Assembly: GCA_963781585.1 (NCBI GenBank)
Contig: CAWAGQ010000013.1
Coordinates: forward strand, 224,001 to 288,000
DNA length: 64,000 nucleotides
Direction: 5' to 3'
Source: an uncultured Gemmatimonadaceae bacterium
GTDB taxonomy: Bacteria > Gemmatimonadota > Gemmatimonadetes > Gemmatimonadales > Gemmatimonadaceae
In this document: in pieces, positions 7,506 to 20,583 of the stretch
Layout: each line of letters opens with the position of its first letter
Numbering within the stretch: the stretch's first letter is position 1
The notes under the pieces: generated by a model
Seen by the model: the letters and a program-made list of their open reading frames with translations, nothing else
Databases searched by the model: none
Told to the model about the DNA's origin: nothing
Position numbers and translations under genes: made by a program

Positions 7506-9399
7506 CCTTGAATACGATCATGGCCAGGGGTGGCAGCGTGACGATGATGCTGTTCAGATGTCCGTGCTGCCCCACCGGAACACTCTCCACGCCGCCCAGA
7601 TTGCCCTGGCCGCTCCCGCCGTAGAGCGGAGCGTCGCTGTTCAGAATCTCTTCCCAGTATCCGGCATGGGGGACGCCCACGCGGTAGTTGTGCCGGGGGA
7701 TGGGCGTGAAGTTGCAGCAGATGACGAGTGGTGGCGCCGGCGGATCGCCGCGCCGCAGCATCAGCAGGATGCTTTGCTGGGCGTCGTTGCAGTCGATCCA
7801 GGTGAATCCCGCGGGGTCGAAGTCGAGCTGGTAGAACGCCGGCTGGCCGCGATAGCTGGTGTTCAGGTCGCGCACCCAGCGACGGAGGCCCTGATGCATG
7901 GCCTCGTTCAGCAGGTGCCAGTCCAGGCTGCGGTCGTGGTTCCATTCGGCCACCTGGCCGAACTCGCCCCCCATGAACAGCAGCTTCTTGCCGGTCACCG
8001 CGTACTGGTAGCCGAACAGGAGCCGGAGGTTGGCGAACTTCTGCCAGCGGTCGCCGGGCATCTTGCCGAACAGCGATCCCTTGCCGTGTACCGCCTCGTC
8101 GTGCGAGAGGGGGAGGAGGAAGTTCTCGGAGAGCGCGTAGAGGCCGCGGAAGGTCAGGTTGGTGTGGTGGTGCTTGCGGTGCACGGGGTCACGCGAGAAA
8201 TAGTCCAGCGTGTCGTGCATCCAGCCCATGTCCCACTTCATCCCGAAGCCGAGGCCACCGAGGTAGGTGGGCCGCGACACCATGGGCCAGGCGGTCGATT
8301 CCTCGGCCACCGTGACCGCGCCCGGGCGTTCGCGGTAGATCTCCTCGTTCATCCGGCGCAGGAAGCCGATTGCGCCGAGGTTCTCCCGTCCCCCGAACTC
8401 GTTCGGGATCCACTCGCCCGGTTTGCGCGAGTAGTCCAGGTAGAGCATCGACGCGACCGCGTCCACCCGCAGGCCGTCGGCGTGATATTCGTCGAGCCAG
8501 AACAACGCGCTGCTGATCAGGAAGCTGCGGACTTCGTGCCGGTCATAGTTGAAGATCGCGCTGTTCCAGTCCGGGTGATGTCCCTTGCGCGGATCGCCGT
8601 GCTCGTAGAGATGCGTGCCGTCGAAGTACACCAGGCCGTGCTCGTCGGCAGGGAAGTGCGACGGCACCCAGTCGAGAATGACGCCGATCCCGTTCCGGTG
8701 CAGCACATCGATCAGATACATGAGATCCTGCGGCGTCCCGTAGCGGCTCGACGGGGCGAAGTAGCCGGTGGTCTGGTAGCCCCACGACCCGTAGAACGGG
8801 TGCTCCATGATCGGCAGGAGCTCCACGTGCGTGAACCCGGCGTCGAGGACGTAGTCCACCAGGCTGGTCGCGAGCTCGCGGTAGGTGAGCATCCGGTTCC
8901 CCTCTTCGGGGACGCGGCGCCACGAGCCGATGTGGACCTCGTAGATGGCCATCGGATCGCGCAGCGGCTGGCGCGACGACATCGCGTCACGCCACGCCTG
9001 ATCTCCCCATTCGTAGTCCAGTCCCCACACGATCGACGCCTGTCGCGGTGGTTCCTCGCAGCGGAAGGCGAGGGGATCCGCCTTGTCTACGCGGAAACGC
9101 CCCCGGCGCGACCGGATGTGGTATTTGTATGCCGCGCCGGCCGCGACCTCCGGAATGAATCCCTGCCAGACGCCGGAATCACCAGCCGACTCCAGCTGGT
9201 GGCTGTTGGTGTCCCAGCCGTTGAAGTCGCCCATCACCGAGACCGATTCGGCGTTAGGCGCCCAGACGCCGAAGGTGACACCACGCTGCCCGTTCCGCTG
9301 AGCGAAGTGCGCGCCCAGATGCCGGTAGAGCCGGAACTGGGTGCCCTCGCCGAACAGATAGAGGGCGTCGGCCGTGAGCAGGGAGTTCGCGCCGGCCAT
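7498..9399 (-). CDS. glgB: 1,4-alpha-glucan branching enzyme
   Basis: VWAPNA, IYEVHIGSW, EHPFYGSWGYQ, LDWVPSHFP, GLRVDAVASMLYLDYSR, AEESTAWP, LSHDEAVHGKGS. ATG at 9399 is coupled to the glgE stop (TGATG). Confidence 0.97.
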
Positions 9400-11462
9400 C
9401 ACAGGTAGTAGTCGAAGTCCCGCTCGGTCTTGAGCCGGCGACGCACGCGGAAGATGTGCGCGGGCACCGAGGCCGGATCGAGCGAGATGAAGTTGCGCGG
9501 ACCATGCCACAGGTAGCGCGCGTCGCTCACCAGGTCGTGCACCTGAAATGGCGTGTCGGCGTCCAGTTCGAAATCGGCCAGCGGCAGCGTCAACCACCCC
9601 GAATGCGCATGGTGCGGGTTCAGGTTCACGACCACGATCAGCAGGTCACTCTGGTCGGGCGTGCTGCGCGCGTACGCGACCAGCTCCTCATTGTCGATCT
9701 CCAGGAATTGGAGCCCCGGATGTGCGAACGCCGGATTCGCGCGGCGGATGGCGTTGACCCGCGTGATGAATGGCGCCAGCGAATCGTCACGCTCGAGGTC
9801 CCAGTGACGCACCTGATACTTCTCGGAATCGAGATACTCCTCGGTCCCGGGAACCGCACCGGCGTCGAACAGCTCGAACGTGGGTCCATAGATGCCGTAG
9901 TTGCCGGCCAGCGTCGCGGCCAGCACGAACCGGATCTGATGCGCGGCCCGGCCACCCGCCTGCAGGTACTCGTGGAGTATGTCGGGCGTGTTGGCGAACA
10001 GATTCGGCCGCAGATACTCGGCGACCTCGGTCTGTGTGAGCTCGGTGAAATAGTCGGTGAGCTCCTTCCTGGTGTTGCGCCAGGTGAAGTACGTGTACGA
10101 CTGCGAGAATCCGCTCTTGGCGAGGTGCCGCATCACCTTGGGCCGGGTAAATGCCTCGGACAGGAAAATCACGGTCGGATGCTGCGCGCGCACTTCCCGG
10201 ATCAGCCACTCCCAGAATGCAAACGGCTTGGTATGTGGATTATCCACGCGGAAGATCTCGACGCCATGGCCGATCCAGAACAGCACCACGCGCTTCATCT
10301 CCTGCCAGAGCGCCGACCAGTCGGTCGACTCGAAGAACAGCGGGTAGATGTCCTGGTACTTCTTGGGCGGATTCTCCGCGTACTGAATCGTCCCGTCCGG
10401 GCGATGACGGAACCACGCCGGATGCTCACGCGTGTACGGGTGGTCGGGCGAACACTGCAGCGCAAGGTCGAGGGCAATCTCCAGGCCCTGCTTCCGCGCC
10501 TCGTGCACCAGCAGATCGAAGTCGTCGAACGTCCCGAGCTGCGGATGAATGGCATCGTGTCCGCCATCGAGCGAACCGATCGCCCACGGGCTCCCCACGT
10601 CGTCGGCGCTCGCCGAGACGCTGTTGTTGGGTCCCTTGCGGTGGGTGACGCCGATGGGATGAATCGGTGTCAGATACAGCACGTCGAAGCCCAGCGACGC
10701 CACGTAGGGAAGGCGCGCGATCACGTCTCGCAGCGTGCCGTGGCGTCCGGGCTCGCTGCCCGCCGATCGCGGAAACATCTCGTACCACGCACCAAACTGC
10801 GCGCGCCGACGCTCCACCTCGACCTGAAGGGCCGGCGCGGAGACGGTCGCCCGTGACCGGTCGAGGTGCTGGCGCATGGTAGCGGCGAGTTCCGGCTCGA
10901 GCGCGGCTTCAACGCGTTCTGCAACAGGTGCGTTGCCGCCGATGAACTTCGCACCCTCGCGGAGCAGGGCCGCGTCGCTCCCGCCACCAGCGGCCACCTC
11001 GCTCAGCATCGCTGCTCCCTGGATCAGCTCGCTGTGCACGTCCTGATCAGCTGCCACCTTCTTCTCGAGTCCCGAGCGCCAGGTGGCGAAGTGATCCACG
11101 CATCCCAGAACGGCATACTCATAGAAGCCGAGTTCCGGCAGCGCAAAGCCGGCACTCCAACGATCGTTGCCAAGTGCCTTCATGGGAACCTCGGTCCACT
11201 GCGGGGCTCCGCGCTTCCGGAATCTCAGCAACGCGACGAGGGCGTCATGTCCCTCTGCGAAGACGTCGGCCGACACTACCAAGCGATCGTCCACCACGCG
11301 CTTCACCGGGAACCGCCCCCCATCAATGCCGGGCTTCACGCCTTCCACGACCACGCGCGGCGGCGGCATCGGTCGCTCGGGGGACTTGTCGGCTACGGCA
11401 ACCGCCGGCGCGGCGACACCGCGCTCGGCGATCGCGCTGGCCGTGCGACGCGTCCCTGTCAT
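9399..11462 (-). CDS. glgE: Alpha-1,4-glucan:maltose-1-phosphate maltosyltransferase
   Basis: AWYEMFPRS, YAENPPKKYQDIYP, FRVDNPHTKP, FLSEAFTRP, FSQSYTYFTWR, NTPDIL, EEYLDSEKYQ. Confidence 0.96.
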   Translation of the reverse strand: MTGTRRTASAIAERGVAAPAVAVADKSPERPMPPPRVVVEGVKPGIDGGRFPVKRVVDDRLVVSADVFAEGHDALVALLRFRKRGAPQWTEVPMKALGNDRWSAGFALPELGFYEYAVLGCVDHFATWRSGLEKKVAADQDVHSELIQGAAMLSEVAAGGGSDAALLREGAKFIGGNAPVAERVEAALEPELAATMRQHLDRSRATVSAPALQVEVERRRAQFGAWYEMFPRSAGSEPGRHGTLRDVIARLPYVASLGFDVLYLTPIHPIGVTHRKGPNNSVSASADDVGSPWAIGSLDGGHDAIHPQLGTFDDFDLLVHEARKQGLEIALDLALQCSPDHPYTREHPAWFRHRPDGTIQYAENPPKKYQDIYPLFFESTDWSALWQEMKRVVLFWIGHGVEIFRVDNPHTKPFAFWEWLIREVRAQHPTVIFLSEAFTRPKVMRHLAKSGFSQSYTYFTWRNTRKELTDYFTELTQTEVAEYLRPNLFANTPDILHEYLQAGGRAAHQIRFVLAATLAGNYGIYGPTFELFDAGAVPGTEEYLDSEKYQVRHWDLERDDSLAPFITRVNAIRRANPAFAHPGLQFLEIDNEELVAYARSTPDQSDLLIVVVNLNPHHAHSGWLTLPLADFELDADTPFQVHDLVSDARYLWHGPRNFISLDPASVPAHIFRVRRRLKTERDFDYYL

Positions 11463-11942
11463 CGACCCATACCAGTGTCACTGCACACACCGAACTCAGC
11501 GTGCCCGCGGGGCGGGATGGTGCGAATGCGCAGGCCCTGATGGCAATCGGTGGCGACGAGCATGGGCAGTTCTCTCCCCCGGGAAAGCAGCGCGGCGGAC
11601 TCCGTACCGTTATCGCGTGCGTGAGGCCTTGTCAAGAAATCCCGGCCTGCGCGGACGAGGCCGGGTGGCGAGCGTCGCGGTCGGCGCTGCCGGCCAGAGA
11701 GCCTAACGAGCGCTGATCTGGCCGGTCGCGCACGGCCGAGTTGCGGAGTCCGGGGACCTTCGCAACGGAACGCGTTGTCTCACAAACCGGAAGCCGTAGA
11801 TCGGCGCGACCCGCCTGGTCCAGGGGGCCGGAACTCCGGCTCGGTTCCACGACTTCGTGCTCGTGGGTATCGTATTGTGGTGAAGGTCCGGAGTCCTCCG
11901 GACGCACGGGATACGGCGGGTGAGCCCGCCGGGGAGGGAAGT

Positions 11943-12629
11943 GTGTCTCGCCTGGTGATTACCGCGGGAATCGTCGCCGCAGCGGCGCTGCCGCTCTCGG
12001 CGGTGGTGGTGCGCCGCGCGTCCATCTCGCCGAAGGCTGTTCCGGCGCCGGTGGTGCACGCCGTCAACGCGACACCCGCTACCCTGCAAACCGCCGTGTT
12101 CGCCGGCGGGTGTTTCTGGGGCATCGAGGCCGTCTTCGAACACCTCAAGGGGGTCACGGACGCCGTGTCGGGATACGCGGGCGGCGTCGAGCGGACGGCG
12201 GAATACGAGATCGTCAGCACCGGACGCACCGGTCACGCCGAGTCGGTGCGGGTGACGTTCGATCCGTCAAAGATCACCTATGAGCAGCTGCTCCAGGTCT
12301 TTTTCTCGGTGGCGCACGATCCCACGCAGCTGAACCGCCAGGGTCCTGATGTAGGCACCCAATATCGCTCGGCGATCTTCTACGCCGATTCGGAGCAGGC
12401 GCGGGTGGCGCGTGCGTACATCGACCAGCTCACCAGGGCGAAGGTGTTCGCACGCCCGATCGTGACGCAGGTTGTTCCGCTCAAGGAGTTCTACCCGGCC
12501 GAGGCGTACCATCAGGACTACATGGCGCATCACCCCAACGAGCCGTACATCGTGTTCAACGACCGACCCAAGGTGGAGCACCTGAAGAAGGAGTTCCCCG
12601 GTCTGTACCGGGAGATGGGACCGGAGTAG
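11943..12629 (+). CDS. msrA: Peptide-methionine (S)-S-oxide reductase, likely exported
   Basis: [50 protein letters not shown]; hydrophobic N-terminus after GGAGGG and GTG. Confidence 0.95.
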
Positions 12630-12721
12630 TCGCTCGGCCGCGCTGGGGGGACGAGGCCGTCCTCAGCCGCTTCGTGAGGTTCGAAACAGCAGTCCGGGAG
12701 ACCCCGGCGAGGCAGGTGCGT

Positions 12722-14176
12722 TCAGCGCCAGCGCCGCCACGATCCCCACGGAGCGCGCGCGGAGGCCAGCGCGGTAGCGCGCTGAGCCTCGACTGCTGGT
12801 CGGGCCGCGCCGAGCCACGGAGCGCGGCTCCGCACGCTCGCGACGTTCAGTGCGCCGAGCCCGCCGCGGCCGAGCCGCGACGCGCCGAAGCCGGAAGTCA
12901 GGAACCCCGGGGGAGTTCGCGCCAGCAACACACCGGCGTTAGGTGCGATGTCCGTCGGCCGGTTGTTGGAGCCGAAGACGGCCGAGAAGCTGAGATTCCC
13001 GTCATCGTTCCCTATCTTGAAGAACGGGATCCTGACGGTGACGGAGTCATCATCGTAGACGGTAGCCACCAGACCGAGGAAGCCGTCGAGTCCCCACATC
13101 TCGGCGGTCGCGTCGTCCTGGCTGAAGAAGCTGACCTCGTAGTCCACGCCCTGTGTGGCGGACCCCCCGAGGACGTTGACGCCGGGTGGGACGCCGGTGG
13201 CCTCGCTCTCGTCCACGTCGAAGTCCATGAACCCGTACAGCGAATTGGGCTGCGCCAGCGCCGACGCGACCACGGGCGCCGAGAAGTGCAGCGTGAGCAG
13301 CAGCCACCCCGGTACGTAACGCCCGGTGACCGCCAGGAGGTCGAGCGCGGGGGCGGATCCCGTCTGGGTGTTGGGCAGCGTGTCGTTGGCCGGATCGGTG
13401 ACCGCGAATCCCTCCTCTCCGGCTCCGATCGCGGTGCAGACAACATCGACCGACATGGGCAGCGCCTGACCGGCGGCAATCGACACTGGCCGCGTGGCGG
13501 AGCCGGTCAATGTGCAGTTCGGCTCCACGTCGAAGATTTCGAGCGTGTGATCGCCGGGCGGAATGTGGATGAGCCGGCGCGACGAGTTGCGGTCCAGCTC
13601 GAACACCAGACCCTGGTCGTAGGAGATCAGGTAGCCGTCGGGGTCGATGTCCTCACCGGTGGTGGTTGACGTAAACCTGACTTCGCCCGTCACCGGCGTG
13701 CACTGCACCGCGAAGTTCACATCGATCGTATCGTTGGCCACGATCGATACCTGACGAGAGTCCTGGCCTGATGAGCACGCCGAGTTGAGTCCCTGCAGGG
13801 CGACCGTATGGGTGCCGACCCGAAGGTTGTTGACGTGGAAGGTCGCGCCGTCGGCGCTCGACACGTCGAGCGGAGCGATGGTATCGATGGCGAGCTTGAA
13901 GGTGAACGTCGCAAGGTCGCCCGCCGTTTGCGTGGCGACGGAAATCGTCATCGATCCGTGCGCGGCCGGTCCGGTGCTGTCCGAGCACCCGGCCAGGATC
14001 CATGCGGCGGCGAGAAGCGGCCCGGCTGTCGCGGCGAGGTGCATGCTTCTGCAGCGTGCAACCGGTTGGCGAGCGGATGCGCCAATCCCGGCGTAGAGTG
14101 ACCGGCGGGCCGCACCGGAAGACGAGTGCGTACCATGCGGTAGCGCGGATTGCGACGATCGCGGACCGGACATCAT
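12722..14176 (-). CDS. Hypothetical lipoprotein with two Ig-like Cys-paired repeats
   Basis: Lipobox ILAGC-SDSTGP; two related beta-rich units (HTVALQGLNSACS...FAVQC and HTLEIFDVEPNCT...VDVVC); TTGEDIDPDGY. Start 14176 or 14044. Confidence 0.7.
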   Translation of the reverse strand: MMSGPRSSQSALPHGTHSSSGAARRSLYAGIGASARQPVARCRSMHLAATAGPLLAAAWILAGCSDSTGPAAHGSMTISVATQTAGDLATFTFKLAIDTIAPLDVSSADGATFHVNNLRVGTHTVALQGLNSACSSGQDSRQVSIVANDTIDVNFAVQCTPVTGEVRFTSTTTGEDIDPDGYLISYDQGLVFELDRNSSRRLIHIPPGDHTLEIFDVEPNCTLTGSATRPVSIAAGQALPMSVDVVCTAIGAGEEGFAVTDPANDTLPNTQTGSAPALDLLAVTGRYVPGWLLLTLHFSAPVVASALAQPNSLYGFMDFDVDESEATGVPPGVNVLGGSATQGVDYEVSFFSQDDATAEMWGLDGFLGLVATVYDDDSVTVRIPFFKIGNDDGNLSFSAVFGSNNRPTDIAPNAGVLLARTPPGFLTSGFGASRLGRGGLGALNVASVRSRAPWLGAARPAVEAQRATALASARAPWGSWRRWR

Positions 14177-14473
14177 TCCCCCCGAGGCGTTCGGCCTCGA
14201 ACTAGCCCCACGTCGAAGGGTCGATGCTAGTTCGCCGACAGTCTCCGGAAGATACGACGAAGATCGTGCGAGCGCGCCACGGAACTTGCGCCACCGTGTG
14301 CGCGCCACCGTGCGCGTCGTCTGGTCACGGAGGTAACGAAATCTCCTCGTGGTCCACGAAGGTACCGCGCCTTGAGGTCGAGTCAGATAGCACTCCTCGA
14401 GAGCGACCAATTCAAATGCGCCGTCCTACGCAAGCGGTGAAGCATCGAGAACCCCCAGGTGCGTGGCCGTCCA

Positions 14474-14520
14474 CGGACGAAATTCGGCAAATCCGGACGA
14501 AATTCGGCAAATCCGGACGA
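14474..14520. repeat. 20-bp perfect tandem repeat CGGACGAAATTCGGCAAATC, about 2.35 copies
   Basis: Read directly; lies in the divergent intergenic region about 155 bp upstream of the Cys-rich peptide gene. Confidence 0.9.
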
Positions 14521-14674
14521 TCTTCGGTGTGCTCTGGCTACTCCGAGCGTACCCGTTGTGACGTACCGCCCGAACGGCTTCCAGATGTCCTGGCCCGACT
14601 GCGCCGCACGCCGGCGACAGATCGCCTCGGAACGCGCTTGGTCGGGTGTGACCTTCAAGATCTCGGAGGAAAAG

Positions 14675-14918
14675 ATGTCGAACCGTGGCCTTGCAACTCG
14701 CGCGGCGCTGGTCGTGGGCCTTGCCACAACCGCTCTGCTAGCCACTCCCTCCTGCTCCAGCCTTTGGGTTCTGCTACGAGGGATGCTATCCCCTGATCAT
14801 GTGCCCTGAGCCGTCGGAGCTTCGGTCGTTCTGCATCGACCAAGGTTGCTCAGGTAACGCCAACTGCGCGACGAACGCCGCCAACTGCTCGGGTGATACA
14901 AACATTATTTGCTTCTAA
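14675..14918 (+). CDS. Small secreted 8-cysteine peptide precursor split by a +1 frameshift near 14747-14751 (about 80 aa when repaired)
   Basis: GGAGGA RBS at 14665-14670; ATG 14675 gives signal-like MSNRGLATRAALVVGLATTALLATP; the +1 frame from 14751 reads PAPAFGFCYEGCYPLIMCPEPSELRSFCIDQGCSGNANCATNAANCSGDTNIICF-TAA (14916-14918). Confidence 0.7.
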
Positions 14919-15018
14919 TCTCAGGTGCCATGCCTGACAAGGTGCGCGGCTCGCCCCGACGCAATTGTCGAGGAGGGAGCCGCGGCCATGTCGCCAATCG
15001 CCACTTCTCTCGCGTCGC

Positions 15019-15702
15019 ATGACGGACCGCCACGACAAGGTCTTGTCCGTAACTCTTACGCTCACGGCGGTGGTGCTGGCCGGCACAGCTGTGTACCGAA
15101 CCTTCAGCCGACCTCAACCACCCGCCGGCTTCGAGCCAGCGGCTCCCGAATACGTAAAGAACTGGCGAGAGCTGCTTCCGGCAGGGATCCGGATGGGGAA
15201 CAAGAACGCCTCGATTAGTATCATCGAATTCTCAGACTTCGAGTGTCCCTTCTGCAAACGCTTCGCGTCAACTCTGAAGGACCTGCGGGCGGCGCGTCAT
15301 GATGATGTGGCAATCATCTTCATTCACTATCCGCTGGATTCGCATCGCTTCGCCCGACTGGCCGCCCGGGTGGCAGAGTGCGCGGCAGGCCAGGGCCTCT
15401 TTCCGCGCATGCAGGACCTGCTGTTCGAGAAGCAGGATTCTCTCGGTCTGATTCCGTGGACACGGCTTGCGGTCGACGTGGGAATCCACGATACGTCCAG
15501 CTTCTCACGATGCGCCGCAGACAGCCGTGTTCTTCCGCGCGTGGAAGTCGGTCTCGAGGCAGGGCGCCGGATCAATGTGCGTGGAACGCCAACTGTGCTG
15601 GTAAACGGCTGGCGCCTCTACGGGACCCCGACCCTTGAGCAGCTGCTGAAAGTGATTCAGGACATCGAAGCCGGACGATCGCCCGCAAGAGGGATGCCGT
15701 GA
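15019..15702 (+). CDS. Membrane-anchored DsbA/DsbG-like thioredoxin-fold oxidoreductase
   Basis: N-terminal TM helix; IIEFSDFECPFC (CxxC), HYPL, cis-Pro loop RGTPTVLVNG. Confidence 0.9.
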   Translation: MTDRHDKVLSVTLTLTAVVLAGTAVYRTFSRPQPPAGFEPAAPEYVKNWRELLPAGIRMGNKNASISIIEFSDFECPFCKRFASTLKDLRAARHDDVAIIFIHYPLDSHRFARLAARVAECAAGQGLFPRMQDLLFEKQDSLGLIPWTRLAVDVGIHDTSSFSRCAADSRVLPRVEVGLEAGRRINVRGTPTVLVNGWRLYGTPTLEQLLKVIQDIEAGRSPARGMP

Positions 15703-15706
15703 TCGC

Positions 15707-17128
15707 ATGCGCGGGACGCCGCTACGACCCGTGCGAGCACGATCGGATGGGCCGATGACTGCGAGCACGATGTCGGTCCTTCTAATTACCGGCGTCATCC
15801 GCCGAACAGTGCCGAGTCGATTCCCAGCGGCCTTCGCCGTCCCGGCCAGTCTTCGCAAATCAACCCTCTGTATCCTCGCTCTCATCATCGGGCACCCTCT
15901 GGAGGGCCAGACGCTTCCCACGATGCTAGCCGAATCGAGCTGCCGCTCCGCATGTGGAATGGAAGTGCAGAAGGCCATTCGGCTGGCGGCCGACAGCGAG
16001 GTGCTGGTCACGGGCACGCCGTACTTCGTCGGTTCAGATGCTCAAGGCCGCATCTTCCTGATCCGGAGCAGTCGGTTGGGCCTCCCGGAGGCTCCGCCGC
16101 TTGTGTTCGACCACAACGGGCGCTTTCTGACGGAACTTGGTCGTCGAGGACGGGGCCCGGGAGAAACCCTGTACCCGTCGTGGATTGACTTCGGACCAGA
16201 CGACAGCATTCGCGTTTTCGAGGCCAGTCGAATTCACGTGTTCGGGCCGGATCTCCATCCGGCGAGAACGCAACTTGATCTGAGGGAGGTGCGCTCACTG
16301 AGGTACGTCGTCCGGTTCGGTGACGGCATGATCGTTGGGCTTGGAAACGAGTTCCTCAAACCGGGCGAGCCACGTCCGGTACATGAGCTGCGACCGGGCG
16401 TGAAATCGCTCACCATGATGCCCGAACCGGCACTGAAGGTCCCAAACGGTCCGGTGCGTGTTCTGGCGGCGTCGCGAAACCCGCACCGCTTCTGGATAGG
16501 ACAGTTCGATCTCAGCGAGGGAGTTGGCTACGACCTCCTGCTCACCGACCCAGGTGGACATGTCTTCGCCGCCTTCCGGCGTCGTCCCGTCTGGTGGAAG
16601 TCCCCTCGGATCATCGGATTGAAGACGTTTGTTCCGACTTCCCGAGTGCAGGCCGTTCGGGAGATCCGCAACGGTCTTCTGCTGGTGCTCGTCGCCCAAC
16701 CGCGATCCGACTGGAAGCCCGGCACGGCCGATCCCAGGAACCTCATGGCGTCATCGGATGCGTACGAGGCGAGGATGGAGCTCGTTGACGTTGTGCAGCG
16801 GGGCGTGTCCGGCTGGGCTCACGTCCCCGGCTACCCTGTCGGGATCGTGGATGACACCACGATCGCGACCTATGTCGAAGATGCCGACGGCTCGCCACAC
16901 GTCGATTTATGGCGCGCTTACCCGACCGATGGACGCAGCCAAGGCACCTCGCCGCCGGTGCGAGGAACGCCCCCATTGCGGCAATTCGACGAGTCGAAGC
17001 CCGCGGACGCGCCCCCCACCTCGGCGGGGATCGCAAGGCGTACCCCAGTGAGTTGCTACTTCGCGTCCAGCTTCCTCCCCGCGTTCAGGTTGTCCCAGTT
17101 GAGGATCGTGTTGAACACGAGGAAGTAG
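15707..17128 (+). CDS. Exported 6-bladed beta-propeller-type protein
   Basis: Signal-like TLCILALIIGHPLEGQ, SCRSAC, and VFDHNGRFLTELGRRGRGPGETLYP (GRxGxGPGE blade motif). Start uncertain; 3' end overlaps the convergent gene. Confidence 0.72.
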   Translation: MRGTPLRPVRARSDGPMTASTMSVLLITGVIRRTVPSRFPAAFAVPASLRKSTLCILALIIGHPLEGQTLPTMLAESSCRSACGMEVQKAIRLAADSEVLVTGTPYFVGSDAQGRIFLIRSSRLGLPEAPPLVFDHNGRFLTELGRRGRGPGETLYPSWIDFGPDDSIRVFEASRIHVFGPDLHPARTQLDLREVRSLRYVVRFGDGMIVGLGNEFLKPGEPRPVHELRPGVKSLTMMPEPALKVPNGPVRVLAASRNPHRFWIGQFDLSEGVGYDLLLTDPGGHVFAAFRRRPVWWKSPRIIGLKTFVPTSRVQAVREIRNGLLLVLVAQPRSDWKPGTADPRNLMASSDAYEARMELVDVVQRGVSGWAHVPGYPVGIVDDTTIATYVEDADGSPHVDLWRAYPTDGRSQGTSPPVRGTPPLRQFDESKPADAPPTSAGIARRTPVSCYFASSFLPAFRLSQLRIVLNTRK

Positions 17129-20100
17129 CTCCCGATGGTTTCGCCGCGGTATACGGGATTCGTCGCGAACAGGACGACGTGGCCTTTCTCCAATGGCGCG
17201 TCGACAACGACCGGCCGCTGCGCGATGTCGGCGCCGCCGTCCAGCAGCCCGGAGACCAGCAATCCCTGCTGCTCGCCGAATCGCACGGCCACCCGGGGAC
17301 GTTGATCGGGTGGGATGATGTTGAGCGGGTTGCGCAGCTGCTCCTCAGTGACCGGCGCGTACTGCCACGGCTGCACCGGATCCCGTCGAGGCGCCTCGAA
17401 CTTCGGATCGAGCGCGGGGCGTCCCTGCGGCGTGTCCTGATCGTCCGGGGTGCCGCGCCCGGTGGGCCGGCTTCCGCCGCCGCCCCCTCGACCGCCGCCG
17501 CCGCCCCCGCCACGTCCGCCGCCGCGTGAGCTGCTCACGCCAAAGCTGCCGCCGTCGTCGCTGTACATGGCGAGGCTGTCCTTCACGCCGTAGACGATCG
17601 GGCTCGCATCATCGACGACACGCGTGCGGAGGAGCGTCCCCACCACCTCGCCGCGGCGAGGTGAATTGCTGCTGACACCATTGACCAGGCCGTACTGAAT
17701 CGCGAAGTCGGCCGTGTTGTTCACCGCCACCAGCACGCCACCGCGCTTGACGAAGCTCTCCAGGTTCTCGAGCCCGTTCCACCCCATGCCCGGACGGATA
17801 TCGTCGGTCTCGGCCCACGTGCCGATGTTGGGCGTCTCGGCGGAATGCTTCCACGGCATCGGATTTCGCCACATCGGCATGCCGTTGATGATCGCCTGCC
17901 CGCCGCCGCCACCGGGCGGAAACAGGATCACGTCGTACTTGTCGTTCAGGTTCGGCGTCTTCCCGATGTCCTGCACGCTGATGTAGTCGTACGGGATGGA
18001 GAGGAAGTCGAATGCCTCGCGCCACCATCCCTCGGTCTGCGTGCCCGTCCAGGCATGGAGTATCGCGACCCGCGCCGCACGCGCGGGATGCATGCGCACC
18101 GAGGGCGCCGATGCGAGTGCGAACGCCTTGATGCCGAGCGCCGAGGTTTCCTTGTCGAGGTCGGCCTGCGACACGTTACGCACGATGAACGAGCCACGGT
18201 TGAACTTCTGCCCGTTGGCCTCGAAGGGCTCCTCGGCTGACTGGAAGTCGGCAGCCTTGAGACGATAGCGCAGCGTGGCGAGGGCGTTGTCGCCGTTGTG
18301 GTTGATGGCGAACACGGAGCCGCTGCCGGTTACCCCGCCGGTGGCCGACACCTGGCCGGTGACGCGTTCCATGGGAGCGTCGAGCACCTTGGTGTCGGTC
18401 ACGCGGATGGCCTCGACACCGAAGCCTTCGGGGAAGGTCCACCCGGTGTCGTCGTACGGGTTCTTCTGCGGGTCGTTGGGGCTCCAGTACTGGTAGTCGA
18501 GGAGGGCGTCGGCGATGCGCGAGTAGGGCTGGTCCATGCGGATGACGTAGCTGCCGGCGGGGAACTCGTGCGCCATGGTGCGCGTGGTATCGGCGCCGCG
18601 TCCGCCGCGGCCGGCTCCGGTCTCCGCGCCTGCCTCGGCGCCTCCACCAGCGGCGCCGCCCCGGCCGCCGCGGCCACCGGTCGCGCGCCGCCGAACGGGG
18701 ACCTGCACGGTGAACGCGGCCGTTGCGCGCGAGATCTCCACCGCCTGCTTCTGGAGCACGCGCAGGAGGTCAGCCTGGGCGCCGAGCCGGGGATCGTCGG
18801 CTGGCAGGACGTACGCCGCCGGCCCCTCGGTGTGCGCCTTCAGGATCGACCGCTTGCTCTTGTCGTAGAAGTTGCGCAGGAAGAGCTGCCGGTTGCTGGC
18901 GATGTAGGAGAGCGAGACCAGGATCCCGGTCTGCTCATAGTTGTTGTTGTTCCGCAGCGACCACATCACCCGCGGCAGCGGGGGGTTCTGCTTGTACCAC
19001 GTTCGGGCCGTCTCGTTAGGCGAGAGGGTGCGCTCGACCGTCTCGGCGCTGCCGCCGTTACCGAACGTTTCGTACAGCCGGCTGATGCCGTTGTGGGTGG
19101 CGGCCATGAACATCAGGTACCCCGGCGACCAGGTGTCGAACGTCCCGAACGCGAACACCCCCGGCATGCCGAACCGCGTCATCTCCTGCACGTTGTTCCA
19201 GCCGATCATCTGCCATTCGTTGGTCAGGAGCGGGTCGAGCCACGCGTTGTAGGGCCCGTCGCCGATGGTGTTGTCGTAGAGGTAGGCCACCGACTCGTGC
19301 AGGTCGTGGAGTACCTGCGCCTTCCAGCCGATGTAGGTGTTGAGGACGTTCTGCGACAGCTTGAGGGTGAGCCCCATGGCATCGCGGTTGTTGTCGTGCG
19401 CCACGTAGTGGCCCCAGTAGATGAGGCTTGGCCACGTATCGTCCGGATGCGCCATGTGCCACTTGAACAGGTCCACCTGGCGGTCGCGCCCATCCACCTC
19501 GACGATCGGCGTGATGAGCGTGATCAGGTGGTCGCGGATGTTCCGGATGTACGGGCTCTCGTCGACCGCCAGGCGATAGGCCAGCTCCATCAGCGCCGTG
19601 GGCGCTCCGGCCTCGGGCGAGTGGATGGTGCCGGTGATGTAGTAGACCGGCGCCGCATCGGCTGCCAGGCGGGCCGCCTCCGCGTCGTTCATGCCGATCG
19701 TGCGCGGATCGGCCAGCTTGGCCAGCTTCGCCTTGTTCTCGTCGAGCTTCGCCATCAGGGCTTCGGACGCCACCGCCACCGCGATCATCTCGCGCCCTTC
19801 CTCGGTGGTGCCGATCGAGTAGACCTTCACGCGCGGCGTCGCCTTCGCCAGCCGGCGCATGTAGTCGTAGACCTCGGTGGAGTAGGGGAGCTTGTTCGGC
19901 GCGCCCGCGATGTCGCCGAGCACCACCTTGGGTGTGGGGACGGTCTTCGACGCGGGCAGATAATCGACCAGCGGCGAGAGGAAGAAGGGCTCGGTGGTGT
20001 ACTCCCGGATCTTCTTCGTGTACTCCTCGTCGATGGGCTGGTTGGGCGCGCGTCCCGGAATGGTGGCCGATGCGGCGGGCATCGCCCCGCCGCTGCCGCC

Positions 20101-20202
20101 GTTCCCGGACGCGGAGCCCTGCGCCACCAACGGCCGGGGCGCCGACGCAACGACGCCGACCAGCGAGAGTACCAACGCGCGAACCAGAGTGACACACCGC
20201 AT
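17056..20202 (-). CDS. Exported M14-family zinc carboxypeptidase-like protein
   Basis: SIGTTEEGREM, Zn motif TIHSPE, HDNNRD, HDLHES; signal peptide from ATG 20202; two GGRGG loops. Confidence 0.85.
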   Translation of the reverse strand: MRCVTLVRALVLSLVGVVASAPRPLVAQGSASGNGGSGGAMPAASATIPGRAPNQPIDEEYTKKIREYTTEPFFLSPLVDYLPASKTVPTPKVVLGDIAGAPNKLPYSTEVYDYMRRLAKATPRVKVYSIGTTEEGREMIAVAVASEALMAKLDENKAKLAKLADPRTIGMNDAEAARLAADAAPVYYITGTIHSPEAGAPTALMELAYRLAVDESPYIRNIRDHLITLITPIVEVDGRDRQVDLFKWHMAHPDDTWPSLIYWGHYVAHDNNRDAMGLTLKLSQNVLNTYIGWKAQVLHDLHESVAYLYDNTIGDGPYNAWLDPLLTNEWQMIGWNNVQEMTRFGMPGVFAFGTFDTWSPGYLMFMAATHNGISRLYETFGNGGSAETVERTLSPNETARTWYKQNPPLPRVMWSLRNNNNYEQTGILVSLSYIASNRQLFLRNFYDKSKRSILKAHTEGPAAYVLPADDPRLGAQADLLRVLQKQAVEISRATAAFTVQVPVRRRATGGRGGRGGAAGGGAEAGAETGAGRGGRGADTTRTMAHEFPAGSYVIRMDQPYSRIADALLDYQYWSPNDPQKNPYDDTGWTFPEGFGVEAIRVTDTKVLDAPMERVTGQVSATGGVTGSGSVFAINHNGDNALATLRYRLKAADFQSAEEPFEANGQKFNRGSFIVRNVSQADLDKETSALGIKAFALASAPSVRMHPARAARVAILHAWTGTQTEGWWREAFDFLSIPYDYISVQDIGKTPNLNDKYDVILFPPGGGGGQAIINGMPMWRNPMPWKHSAETPNIGTWAETDDIRPGMGWNGLENLESFVKRGGVLVAVNNTADFAIQYGLVNGVSSNSPRRGEVVGTLLRTRVVDDASPIVYGVKDSLAMYSDDGGSFGVSSSRGGGRGGGGGGGRGGGGGSRPTGRGTPDDQDTPQGRPALDPKFEAPRRDPVQPWQYAPVTEEQLRNPLNIIPPDQRPRVAVRFGEQQGLLVSGLLDGGADIAQRPVVVDAPLEKGHVVLFATNPVYRGETIGSYFLVFNTILNWDNLNAGRKLDAK

Positions 20203-20247
20203 GACAGACCTCGCGAGGGAGAAAGCCGGGCAGGAATGGGACCGCAC

Positions 20248-20294
20248 GGAAAATCGAGTCTGACGCCGCATCTCGGAAAATCGAGTCCGACCCC
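20248..20294 (-). repeat. Two copies of the GGGGTCAGACTCGATTTTCC-family repeat (27-bp period)
   Basis: GGAAAATCGAGTCTGACGCC at 20248-20267 and GGAAAATCGAGTCCGACCCC at 20275-20294. Confidence 0.85.
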
Positions 20295-20583
20295 GATTTC
20301 GGCGCCTCCGGCTGTCAGGCGCAGGAGCCGCCCGATGACAAGAATGCGCCTCCGAACGTCCGCGCGCCAATGTCGAGTGGGGCGGGACGCGCGACCGTCC
20401 GGATGGAGCCACTACGCCAAGTACGGACCGTCGTATCGGTCCGCTGTACCGGCTCCGTGCCAGTGACGATGCGCGAATCACCCTCGGTGCACGCTCGGCA
20501 ACCGGTGGCTCGCCGCCGGGACATGCGCTGCGCAGAGGAGCGGCACCTTGCGCCGCTGTGCGATCTCGTGAGGAATTCCGGCG

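Follow-up and report, generated by a model that had tools for sequence, protein, structure and literature searches.

A recurrent gene cassette of Gemmatimonadota encoding a putative disulfide-rich mini-protein, a DsbA paralogue and a predicted NHL-type propeller, with a frameshifted copy in an uncultured Gemmatimonadaceae bacterium

The 64,000-nucleotide stretch of DNA analysed here (the window; positions 224,001 to 288,000 of contig CAWAGQ010000013.1, assembly GCA_963781585.1, from an uncultured Gemmatimonadaceae bacterium) probably contains, in one copy, an envelope cassette of three genes that is typical of Gemmatimonadota. The genes would specify, in order, a small exported protein with eight cysteines, a DsbA-family oxidoreductase and a six-bladed propeller, and sequence comparison favours a model in which the small protein is exported, folded by the DsbA of its own cassette and acts jointly with the propeller. 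In the window the first gene is broken by a one-base frameshift and, as assembled, cannot make the pre-protein. The arrangement itself is far beyond chance because homologues and identical gene order recur in many genomes. Comparison across these genomes supports a systematic pairing of small signal-peptide proteins that have an even number of cysteines with a distinct DsbA paralogue, often together with a propeller.

Results

The peptide gene of the window is split between two frames

The peptide gene opens at ATG 14675 on the + strand, which also carries the rest of the cassette, 4 nt downstream of a Shine-Dalgarno-like GGAGGA (14665-14670, +) recognised from the sequence. GGAGG-like sites precede most paralogous peptide genes of the source genome too. 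From ATG 14675 the translation gives a basic and then hydrophobic leader, the signal-peptide part of the gene (14675..14749, +), which matches the family profile at its leader columns; the same frame terminates at 14807-14809. The +1 frame opens at 14742, directly after a TAG (14739-14741), and encodes a 58-residue Cys-rich stretch that ends at the stop 14916-14918. Within it lies the mature eight-Cys domain (14750..14918, +, stop codon included), which has intervals of 3, 5, 9, 4, 5, 6 and 7 residues between successive cysteines, ends in Cys-Phe and is 53% identical to the intact peptide of G070, a genome of the same genus. A +1 step at the frame break (14747..14751, +), where one surplus base lies in or beside a CCC run, joins leader and core, and taking CCCT as a single step yields an 80-amino-acid (aa) product, P0154. 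The relatives require no such shift, leader and core being encoded in one frame.

Ordinary lists of open reading frames (ORFs) contain only two fragments at this position, 14459..14809 and 14799..14918, because the +1 frame has no ATG, GTG or TTG before 14799. The sequence-only reading that first singled out this locus had described the ribosome-binding site, the leader, the +1-frame eight-Cys core with its spacing and the Cys-Phe end exactly as we find them, and was right that the ORF list misses the product. It had regarded that product as hidden; the eight-Cys core is indeed there, but the gene as assembled is broken and its relatives are intact in one frame.

The peptides form a family without a name

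A profile search of 1.84 billion representative proteins returned 285 clusters at E<=1e-3, nearly all of them 78-94 aa long, and among the ten best clusters, which were looked up, the sole real name was 'hypothetical protein'. Exactly eight cysteines are present in 130 of the 151 family members examined, a small-x-small site lies ahead of the first Cys in 149, and the mature peptides are acidic (net negative in 97%, median net charge -5). In a family alignment of 31 sequences seven Cys columns are invariant and the remaining Cys occupies two alternative alignment positions; beyond Cys, the peptide alignments hold no invariant Trp or other cofactor-type residue. Pfam and NCBIfam scans of the peptides matched no model, a protein homologue search with the peptide profile returned 5 proteins, and an ESM Atlas search returned unnamed clusters only, at scores of 0.82 or less.

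A structural model of the paralogue at C5 in the source genome has a strand-helix-strand-strand order. Foldseek of this model (pLDDT 73) against the PDB gave nothing at E<=0.001, and a VIA wide search with it reached a best Z of 3.5, to unrelated chains. The peptide profile, run against PDB sequences, touched tick carboxypeptidase inhibitor chains only, at a non-significant E of about 5.

Peptide and DsbA genes recur together across the phylum

A profile built from four peptides had matches in 10 of 200 other genomes of the family. DsbA adjoins the peptide match in 9 of the 12 loci examined (11 foreign and one from the source genome); two of the three DsbA-less loci proved on inspection not to be peptides, and the third is the C9:149.7k copy of the source genome. 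The true peptide matches all have a signal-like leader and mostly 8 Cys. Phylum-wide, matches occur in 14 of 300 other genomes and in 4 of 12 families (7/69, 4/125, 2/47 and 1/4 genomes, with none in the eight other families sampled), and DsbA is present in 13 of these 14 loci.

From the DsbA side, a close relative of the window protein is found in 22 of 100 other genomes with 1-7 matches each. Whether homologous DsbA/propeller pairs have Cys-rich ORFs upstream had been proposed as the test on which the sequence-only reading should fall, and such ORFs are present: a same-strand signal-plus-Cys-rich ORF lies within 1.5 kb at 20 of 28 DsbA-anchored foreign loci, a set that includes one negative locus (L052) from a genome flagged unpublished. 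Two further loci, L042 and L064, hold true peptides that the ORF rule missed and are additional to the 20. For comparison, candidates of this kind number 38 over both strands of the 5.7 Mb source genome. Among named public genomes, a peptide ORF is found at 9 of 15 Gemmatimonadota loci (labelled Gemmatimonadota, Gemmatimonadales, Gemmatimonadaceae or Longimicrobium) versus 2 of 65 loci from other phyla, and the second of these two positives resembles a different kind of protein. The other, L095, comes from a metagenome-assembled genome labelled Proteobacteria and has a full-length cassette-type DsbA (41% identical) with a true 8-Cys signal-peptide gene just upstream; this occurrence under another label than Gemmatimonadota reflects either mis-binning or transfer. 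In most extended loci a propeller or a CarboxypepD_reg protein follows. A search of the open-access literature produced no paper describing the cassette, and the sole 'cysteine-rich peptide' match in a Gemmatimonadota paper concerns ranthipeptides. The earlier proposal of an undescribed disulfide-peptide family associated with DsbA and propeller thus agrees with the recurrent pairing and with the lack of any database family or paper in these searches.

The source genome holds many related genes

A rule-based scan of both strands of the 5.7 Mb source genome gave 38 signal-plus-Cys-rich candidates, 13 of which are clearly real by composition and context. With the window copy and C9:149.7k these make about 15 Sec-signal Cys-rich small genes, whose products have 6, 8 or 10 Cys and belong to several sequence types. 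Of the roughly 15, ten directly adjoin a DsbA paralogue; surveyed from the other direction, eight DsbA paralogues of the genome adjoin signal-plus-Cys-rich small ORFs. An intact paralogue at C5:140.1k has leader and core in one frame, GGAGG ahead of it and a DsbA paralogue after it. The third gene of the cassettes in this genome encodes either a propeller of the same divergent family as that of the window or a CarboxypepD_reg protein, sometimes with Plug, and one paralogue is a 465-aa fusion of Thioredoxin_4 with a weak DUF5128 signal, next to a 6-Cys peptide.

Two further loci show variation in gene number and integrity. At C10:276836-278438 (L005) three paralogous 10-Cys peptide genes of a CC-rich type are found, two before one DsbA and one after, and a propeller follows. 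At C9:125910-126399 (L009) a frameshift just past the CPPC motif divides a DsbA paralogue of the cassette type, which is preceded, at a distance of about 2 kb, by a tandem pair of 8-Cys peptide genes (C9:128378-128898).

The second gene encodes a CPFC DsbA-family protein

The DsbA-family gene (15019..15702, +; ORF opening at TTG 14965) encodes FECPFC and a hydrophobic N-terminal segment in ORF 14965..15702. It matches Thioredoxin_4 (PF13462) with 81.4 bits (cut-off 23.2) and DSBA (PF01323) with 51.6 bits (cut-off 25.6), as expected from its earlier description as a membrane-anchored thioredoxin-fold protein with a CPFC active site, and its nearest relatives in the PDB are DsbA, ScsC and BdbD proteins. 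Across 14 cassette DsbAs the residues C76, P77, C79, T190 and P191 are invariant. The window protein carries GTPT, and P191 of this loop is, judged by its position, the likely cis-Pro.

The start of the DsbA gene is uncertain: TTG 14965 opens the ORF and ATG 15019 fits the N-termini of the paralogues. Neither has an obvious ribosome-binding site ahead of it in the DsbA frame. Within 14970-14990 the window contains a strong GAGGAGGGAG, followed by ATG 14988, which opens a 76-codon frame outside the DsbA frame, so either the DsbA start is uncertain here or there is a small overlapping ORF. This arrangement prompted the idea of a second frame problem at the 5' end of the DsbA gene, which is not established, a GTG in the DsbA frame being the simplest start for the G070 relative.

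The source genome has one VKOR, which lies beside a different DsbA, and no DsbB matches. In a tree of 13 DsbA paralogues the VKOR-linked protein and two others form a clade apart from the cassette DsbAs (support 99/96), and the five that accompany peptides of the window's type group with one another (support 82/90). At C14:104496-105693 a DsbA paralogue is directly followed by the sole VKOR of the genome, presumably as a housekeeping pair.

The third gene encodes a predicted six-bladed NHL-type propeller

The propeller gene (15770..17128, +; ORF opening at 15707) was assigned by Pfam, AlphaFold and Foldseek. The propeller copy P0153 is 389 aa long, consistent with a start at 15959; the folded core corresponds to about 15947-16924, and 72 nt at the tail are shared with the convergent M14 gene. 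The ORF (15707..17128) carries GRRGRGPGE. Against Pfam DUF5128 it scores 19.2 bits, under the 22.9 cut-off, and its paralogues score 14-16 bits. The AlphaFold model is all-beta with about 24 strands, and its residues 60-385 have a pLDDT of about 85. Foldseek places the NHL domains of Brat, TRIM2, TRIM3 and Thin at the top (E 1.7e-10 to 1e-9, TM to target 0.6-0.67), with further matches to the Bacteroides propellers BF0058 and DUF4221 (4raa, 3s9j) and to PAL 3fvz. The modelling therefore supports a six-bladed NHL-type fold for the window protein and agrees with the propeller, bearing a GRxGxGPGE motif, that had been read from the sequence as an exported protein.

A protein homologue search with the window propeller returned only the protein itself, and no Arylsulfotran Pfam match was found in it. 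Across 14 propellers the number of Cys varies from 1 to 6 without a conserved position, two of the 14 having a single Cys, and several carry an N-terminal CxxC or CxxxC pair. The propeller paralogues at C2:10745-11980 and C6:8203-9438 match the window propeller with near-equal statistics (28% identity over 424 aa), and an in-frame stop interrupts the C2 copy. The gene that converges on the propeller ORF (17056-20481, - strand) encodes an M14 zinc carboxypeptidase of 1141 aa that contains low-complexity inserts rich in Gly and Arg.

The cassette is missing from the syntenic site of a same-genus genome

G070 contains an intact related cassette, on another contig and in another context, with 53% (peptide), 46% (DsbA) and 42% (propeller) identity to the window and with no M14 gene in the 8.2 kb around it. 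The syntenic site in G070 retains MsrA (89% identical), a lipoprotein (76%) and the M14 peptidase, and lacks the cassette segment 14263..16850, as delimited by blastn and tblastn of window 8000-17200 against L093. Left homology stops at 14262 and resumes at 17008, and the gap between the lipoprotein and M14 genes is about 155 bp. Of this gap, 63 bases are unrelated and resemble no part of the cassette more closely than shuffled sequence does, and another 34 nt match window 16851-16884 at 91% identity and encode a strand of the last propeller blade. This propeller remnant implies that the cassette was present in the common ancestor and later deleted in G070, and the cassette at this site therefore looks ancestral in the genus. 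The window frameshift together with the G070 deletion suggests relaxed selection on the locus, with the cassette decaying at this site. At G070:C26:23742-26182 (L091, L092) the M14 orthologue is matched in several frames with internal TGA stops; it seems that either the G070 assembly (64% complete) is error-prone or its M14 gene is decaying.

Base composition and upstream repeats

GC content is 0.60-0.64 across 14200-16800 compared with 0.66-0.73 in the flanks, so the block is AT-richer than its surroundings, as had been noticed; third-position GC is 0.67-0.74 in the cassette and 0.88 in the adjacent M14 gene. Eight of the nine cassettes of the source genome share this trait, at 0.59-0.63 GC versus 0.67 genome-wide. 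Horizontal acquisition had been proposed for the block. Low GC is indeed found, but the site looks ancestral in the genus and the cassette was apparently deleted in G070, leaving a propeller remnant, and the proposal is thus not supported. The absence of CGTTAGGC from the block had also been remarked upon. It is real and carries no information because the genome-wide rate of 0.25 per kb predicts only about 0.6 copies in 2.45 kb, and we rejected it as evidence. Counted with its complement, CGTTAGGC has 18 sites in the window (for example at 1429, 9252 and 19014) and 1442 genome-wide, making it an over-represented 8-mer, several-fold above the expectation estimated by hand from base composition.

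Upstream of the peptide gene, Tandem Repeats Finder detects a perfect 20-bp tandem repeat of 2.3 copies (14474..14520, +), about 155-200 bp before the start codon and unique in the source genome, which is possibly a regulator-binding site. Direct repeats of another sequence, CCAGAAAGTGA-like, lie upstream of the C6 and C2 cassettes, and the repeats of all three cassettes may be locus-specific regulator sites. A promoter and terminator scan of the window gave none on the + strand, and the upstream regions of the genome's 15 peptide genes showed no motif in common, the best 8-mers occurring in 3 of them. Elsewhere in the genome, a third DnaE-like gene (C2:141213-143984) lies in three frames, with open frames of 951, 666 and 288 aa.

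Discussion

Our analysis provides a model for how a small Cys-rich protein of Gemmatimonadota may be exported, folded and put to use. The first gene of the cassette would encode a pre-protein of about 80-87 residues, comprising a Sec signal peptide, a small-x-small cleavage site and, over about 55 residues, an acidic domain in which eight Cys are conserved; the second, a CPFC DsbA-family oxidoreductase held by an inner-membrane anchor; and the third, an exported six-bladed NHL-type propeller, in place of which other copies have a CarboxypepD_reg/Plug-type protein. In a two-membrane bacterium, export by Sec alone ends in the periplasm. The peptide would be exported by this route and its leader cleaved, after which the cassette DsbA paralogue may install four disulfides in the periplasm and be re-oxidised by the single VKOR of the genome. 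The resulting rigid mini-protein would then act in the envelope with the co-encoded propeller, as ligand or partner. The peptide is likelier to be the Dsb client than the propeller, being the more obvious substrate because the propellers have only 1-6 Cys and conserve the position of none.

Several points weigh against this model. The end-to-end alignment of P0154 with the family profile (hhalign probability 99.4%) is a partly circular test, in that the family alignment includes the window's own core; the leader of P0154 is absent from the profile, yet aligns with it. The leaders were called signal peptides by a rule-based reading rather than a dedicated predictor, and export rests on that call. 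The structural model of the peptide is of the C5 paralogue, not the window copy, and is no more than moderate in quality, the best of five models having a pLDDT of 73 and the others 54-58. The propeller is not constant, a same-strand homologue being detected by sequence in 7 of 16 named loci, and the C9:149.7k peptide has no DsbA nearby. Adjacency to DsbA is also no proof of substrate specificity.

The nature of the frame break bears on whether the window copy is functional. We lean towards a real frameshift, and its chief competitor, to which we give somewhat less than even weight, is an assembly error: a surplus base in a short homopolymer, with the gene intact in the cell and the 80-aa pre-protein made. 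One base would account for the whole defect, and downstream of it all eight Cys and 53% identity to an intact relative are kept. The assembly is in 17 contigs with 7% contamination and contains other multi-frame genes, namely the DsbA paralogue at C9:125.9k and the DnaE-like gene on C2. However, indels are not rife, since each of rpoB, rpoC and two DnaE genes, about 16 kb in all, is a single open frame, and the loss of the cassette at the syntenic G070 site fits relaxed selection. Programmed +1 ribosomal frameshifting at CCC-U, for which the family-typical 80-aa product of the four-base reading might be cited, is hardly credible given that leader and core are in one frame in every intact relative examined and the break is not conserved; the site also has no stop or rare 'hungry' codon.

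Other functions can be envisaged for the cassette. The mini-proteins might be Sec-dependent bacteriocin-like weapons or released signals, with the DsbA as foldase and the propeller as immunity protein or receptor. The cassettes are multi-copy, patchy, divergent and GC-poor, their number differs (1-8 DsbA matches in a genome), the peptides are of several sequence types with tandem genes at some loci (three copies at C10), and bacteriocin genes with their own thiol-disulfide oxidoreductase have precedent in sublancin and enterocin F4-9 (PMC6606811). We nonetheless consider this unlikely. The mature peptides, with a median charge of -5, are unlike most membrane-active peptides, inspection of neighbour genes showed no outer-membrane exporter, small membrane immunity gene or ABC transporter in the cassettes, and the fold, taken from the moderate model of a paralogue, matches no known defensin, knottin or bacteriocin. 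The more specific suggestion of a defensin- or knottin-like toxin is likewise weakened, by acidity, by the lack of a match to a solved fold for this model and by export through Sec only. It is more improbable still that the cassette DsbA mainly serves its large exported neighbour, propeller or CarboxypepD_reg protein, and that the peptide is accessory or unrelated. A DsbA-propeller fusion exists, several propellers have the N-terminal CxxC or CxxxC pair, and the DsbL/DsbI-sulfotransferase pairing offers an analogy. Yet the peptides keep 8 Cys whereas the few propeller Cys are non-conserved and fall to one in 2 of 14, the peptide and DsbA pair is constant while the third gene varies, and the propeller has no Arylsulfotran Pfam match. 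Least probable among these functions is inhibition of periplasmic proteases, for example of metallocarboxypeptidases in the manner of the tick and potato carboxypeptidase inhibitors, which we regard as very doubtful. Tick inhibitor chains are the only PDB sequences touched by the profile and an M14 carboxypeptidase gene abuts the window cassette, but an E of about 5 is chance level, the related G070 cassette has no M14 gene within 8.2 kb, the M14 gene stays at the syntenic site where the cassette is lost, and structural comparison gives no match.

The proposed cassette, in which export, folding by the cassette DsbA and action with the propeller are linked, resembles several known systems in part. 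Sublancin 168 (BdbA/BdbB) and enterocin F4-9 are bacteriocins whose loci include their own thiol-disulfide oxidoreductase, according to PMC6606811, and share with the cassette a small exported disulfide peptide encoded beside a dedicated Dsb/Bdb-type oxidoreductase. Loci of the sublancin type, however, belong to glycocins of Firmicutes and include genes for a glycosyltransferase, an ABC exporter and immunity, whereas the cassette relies on a Sec signal only and belongs to a two-membrane phylum; its peptide has 8 Cys and is acidic, a propeller is the third gene and there are many paralogous cassettes per genome. The hallmarks of glycocins are correspondingly absent: the cassette has three genes and Sec-type small-x-small leaders, and Pfam analysis of the neighbours gave no glycosyltransferase, ABC exporter or immunity gene.

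In NHLRC2 and SOQ1 a thioredoxin-like domain, of the Trx8 type with a CC(I/V)NC motif, is joined to a six-bladed NHL propeller, according to PMC6107167, which proposes that partners bind in the cleft separating the two. The likeness lies in the coupling of a thioredoxin fold to an NHL propeller, and one paralogue here is such a fusion. NHLRC2, however, has the CC(I/V)NC motif and no conserved operon partners, whereas the cassette protein is DsbA-type with CPFC, usually a separate gene and peptide-linked; the Trx8 motif is lacking in the window, where CPFC is of DsbA type and the genes are separate.

Extra Dsb or thioredoxin paralogues devoted to one neighbouring periplasmic client are also found elsewhere. 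The DsbL/DsbI pair accompanies arylsulfate sulfotransferase, a propeller enzyme, and MauD accompanies methylamine dehydrogenase, in which a small disulfide-rich subunit sits on the propeller heavy subunit. The cassette differs from the former in that its propeller has no Arylsulfotran match and the genome no DsbB-family match, and from the latter in that the peptide alignments contain no invariant Trp or cofactor-type residue. No MauG-like or DsbI-like gene was noticed in the cassette ORF lists and neighbour Pfam results, which were not a targeted search. The Bacteroides propellers (DUF5128, DUF4221; 4raa, 3s9j) have in common with the cassette propeller their fold and a weak sequence signal that is below the Pfam cut-off, and both are exported proteins of the FCB group. 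Bacteroides propellers may neighbour small 'NVEALA' proteins, an association for which we found no paper.

More tentatively, and as an idea we hold less probable than not, Gemmatimonadota may possess undescribed envelope systems of fast turnover, in which a variable, acidic four-disulfide mini-protein with its own DsbA is read or held by an NHL propeller, sometimes fused to the DsbA. Such a peptide-receptor system would be new to bacteria and might serve recognition, signalling or antagonism, with up to 8 cassette-type DsbA matches per genome.

The peptide matched neither a Pfam or NCBIfam model nor a paper in the open-access literature searched; the association of a peptide with a private oxidoreductase and that of a thioredoxin fold with an NHL propeller were known already. 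The window copy, a broken gene at a decaying site, is of smaller value in itself and serves best as a pointer to the intact copies C5:140.1k, C6:36.3k and C2:33.9k of the same genome. If the model is correct, a widespread and little-studied soil phylum would make dozens of types of small, very stable disulfide-knit proteins, each served by a folding enzyme of its own and in most cases paired with a propeller. They would constitute a new source of disulfide-rich scaffolds with matched oxidoreductases and a natural case of substrate-dedicated DsbA paralogues, and may offer a clue to the role of thioredoxin-NHL propeller pairs such as NHLRC2 and SOQ1.

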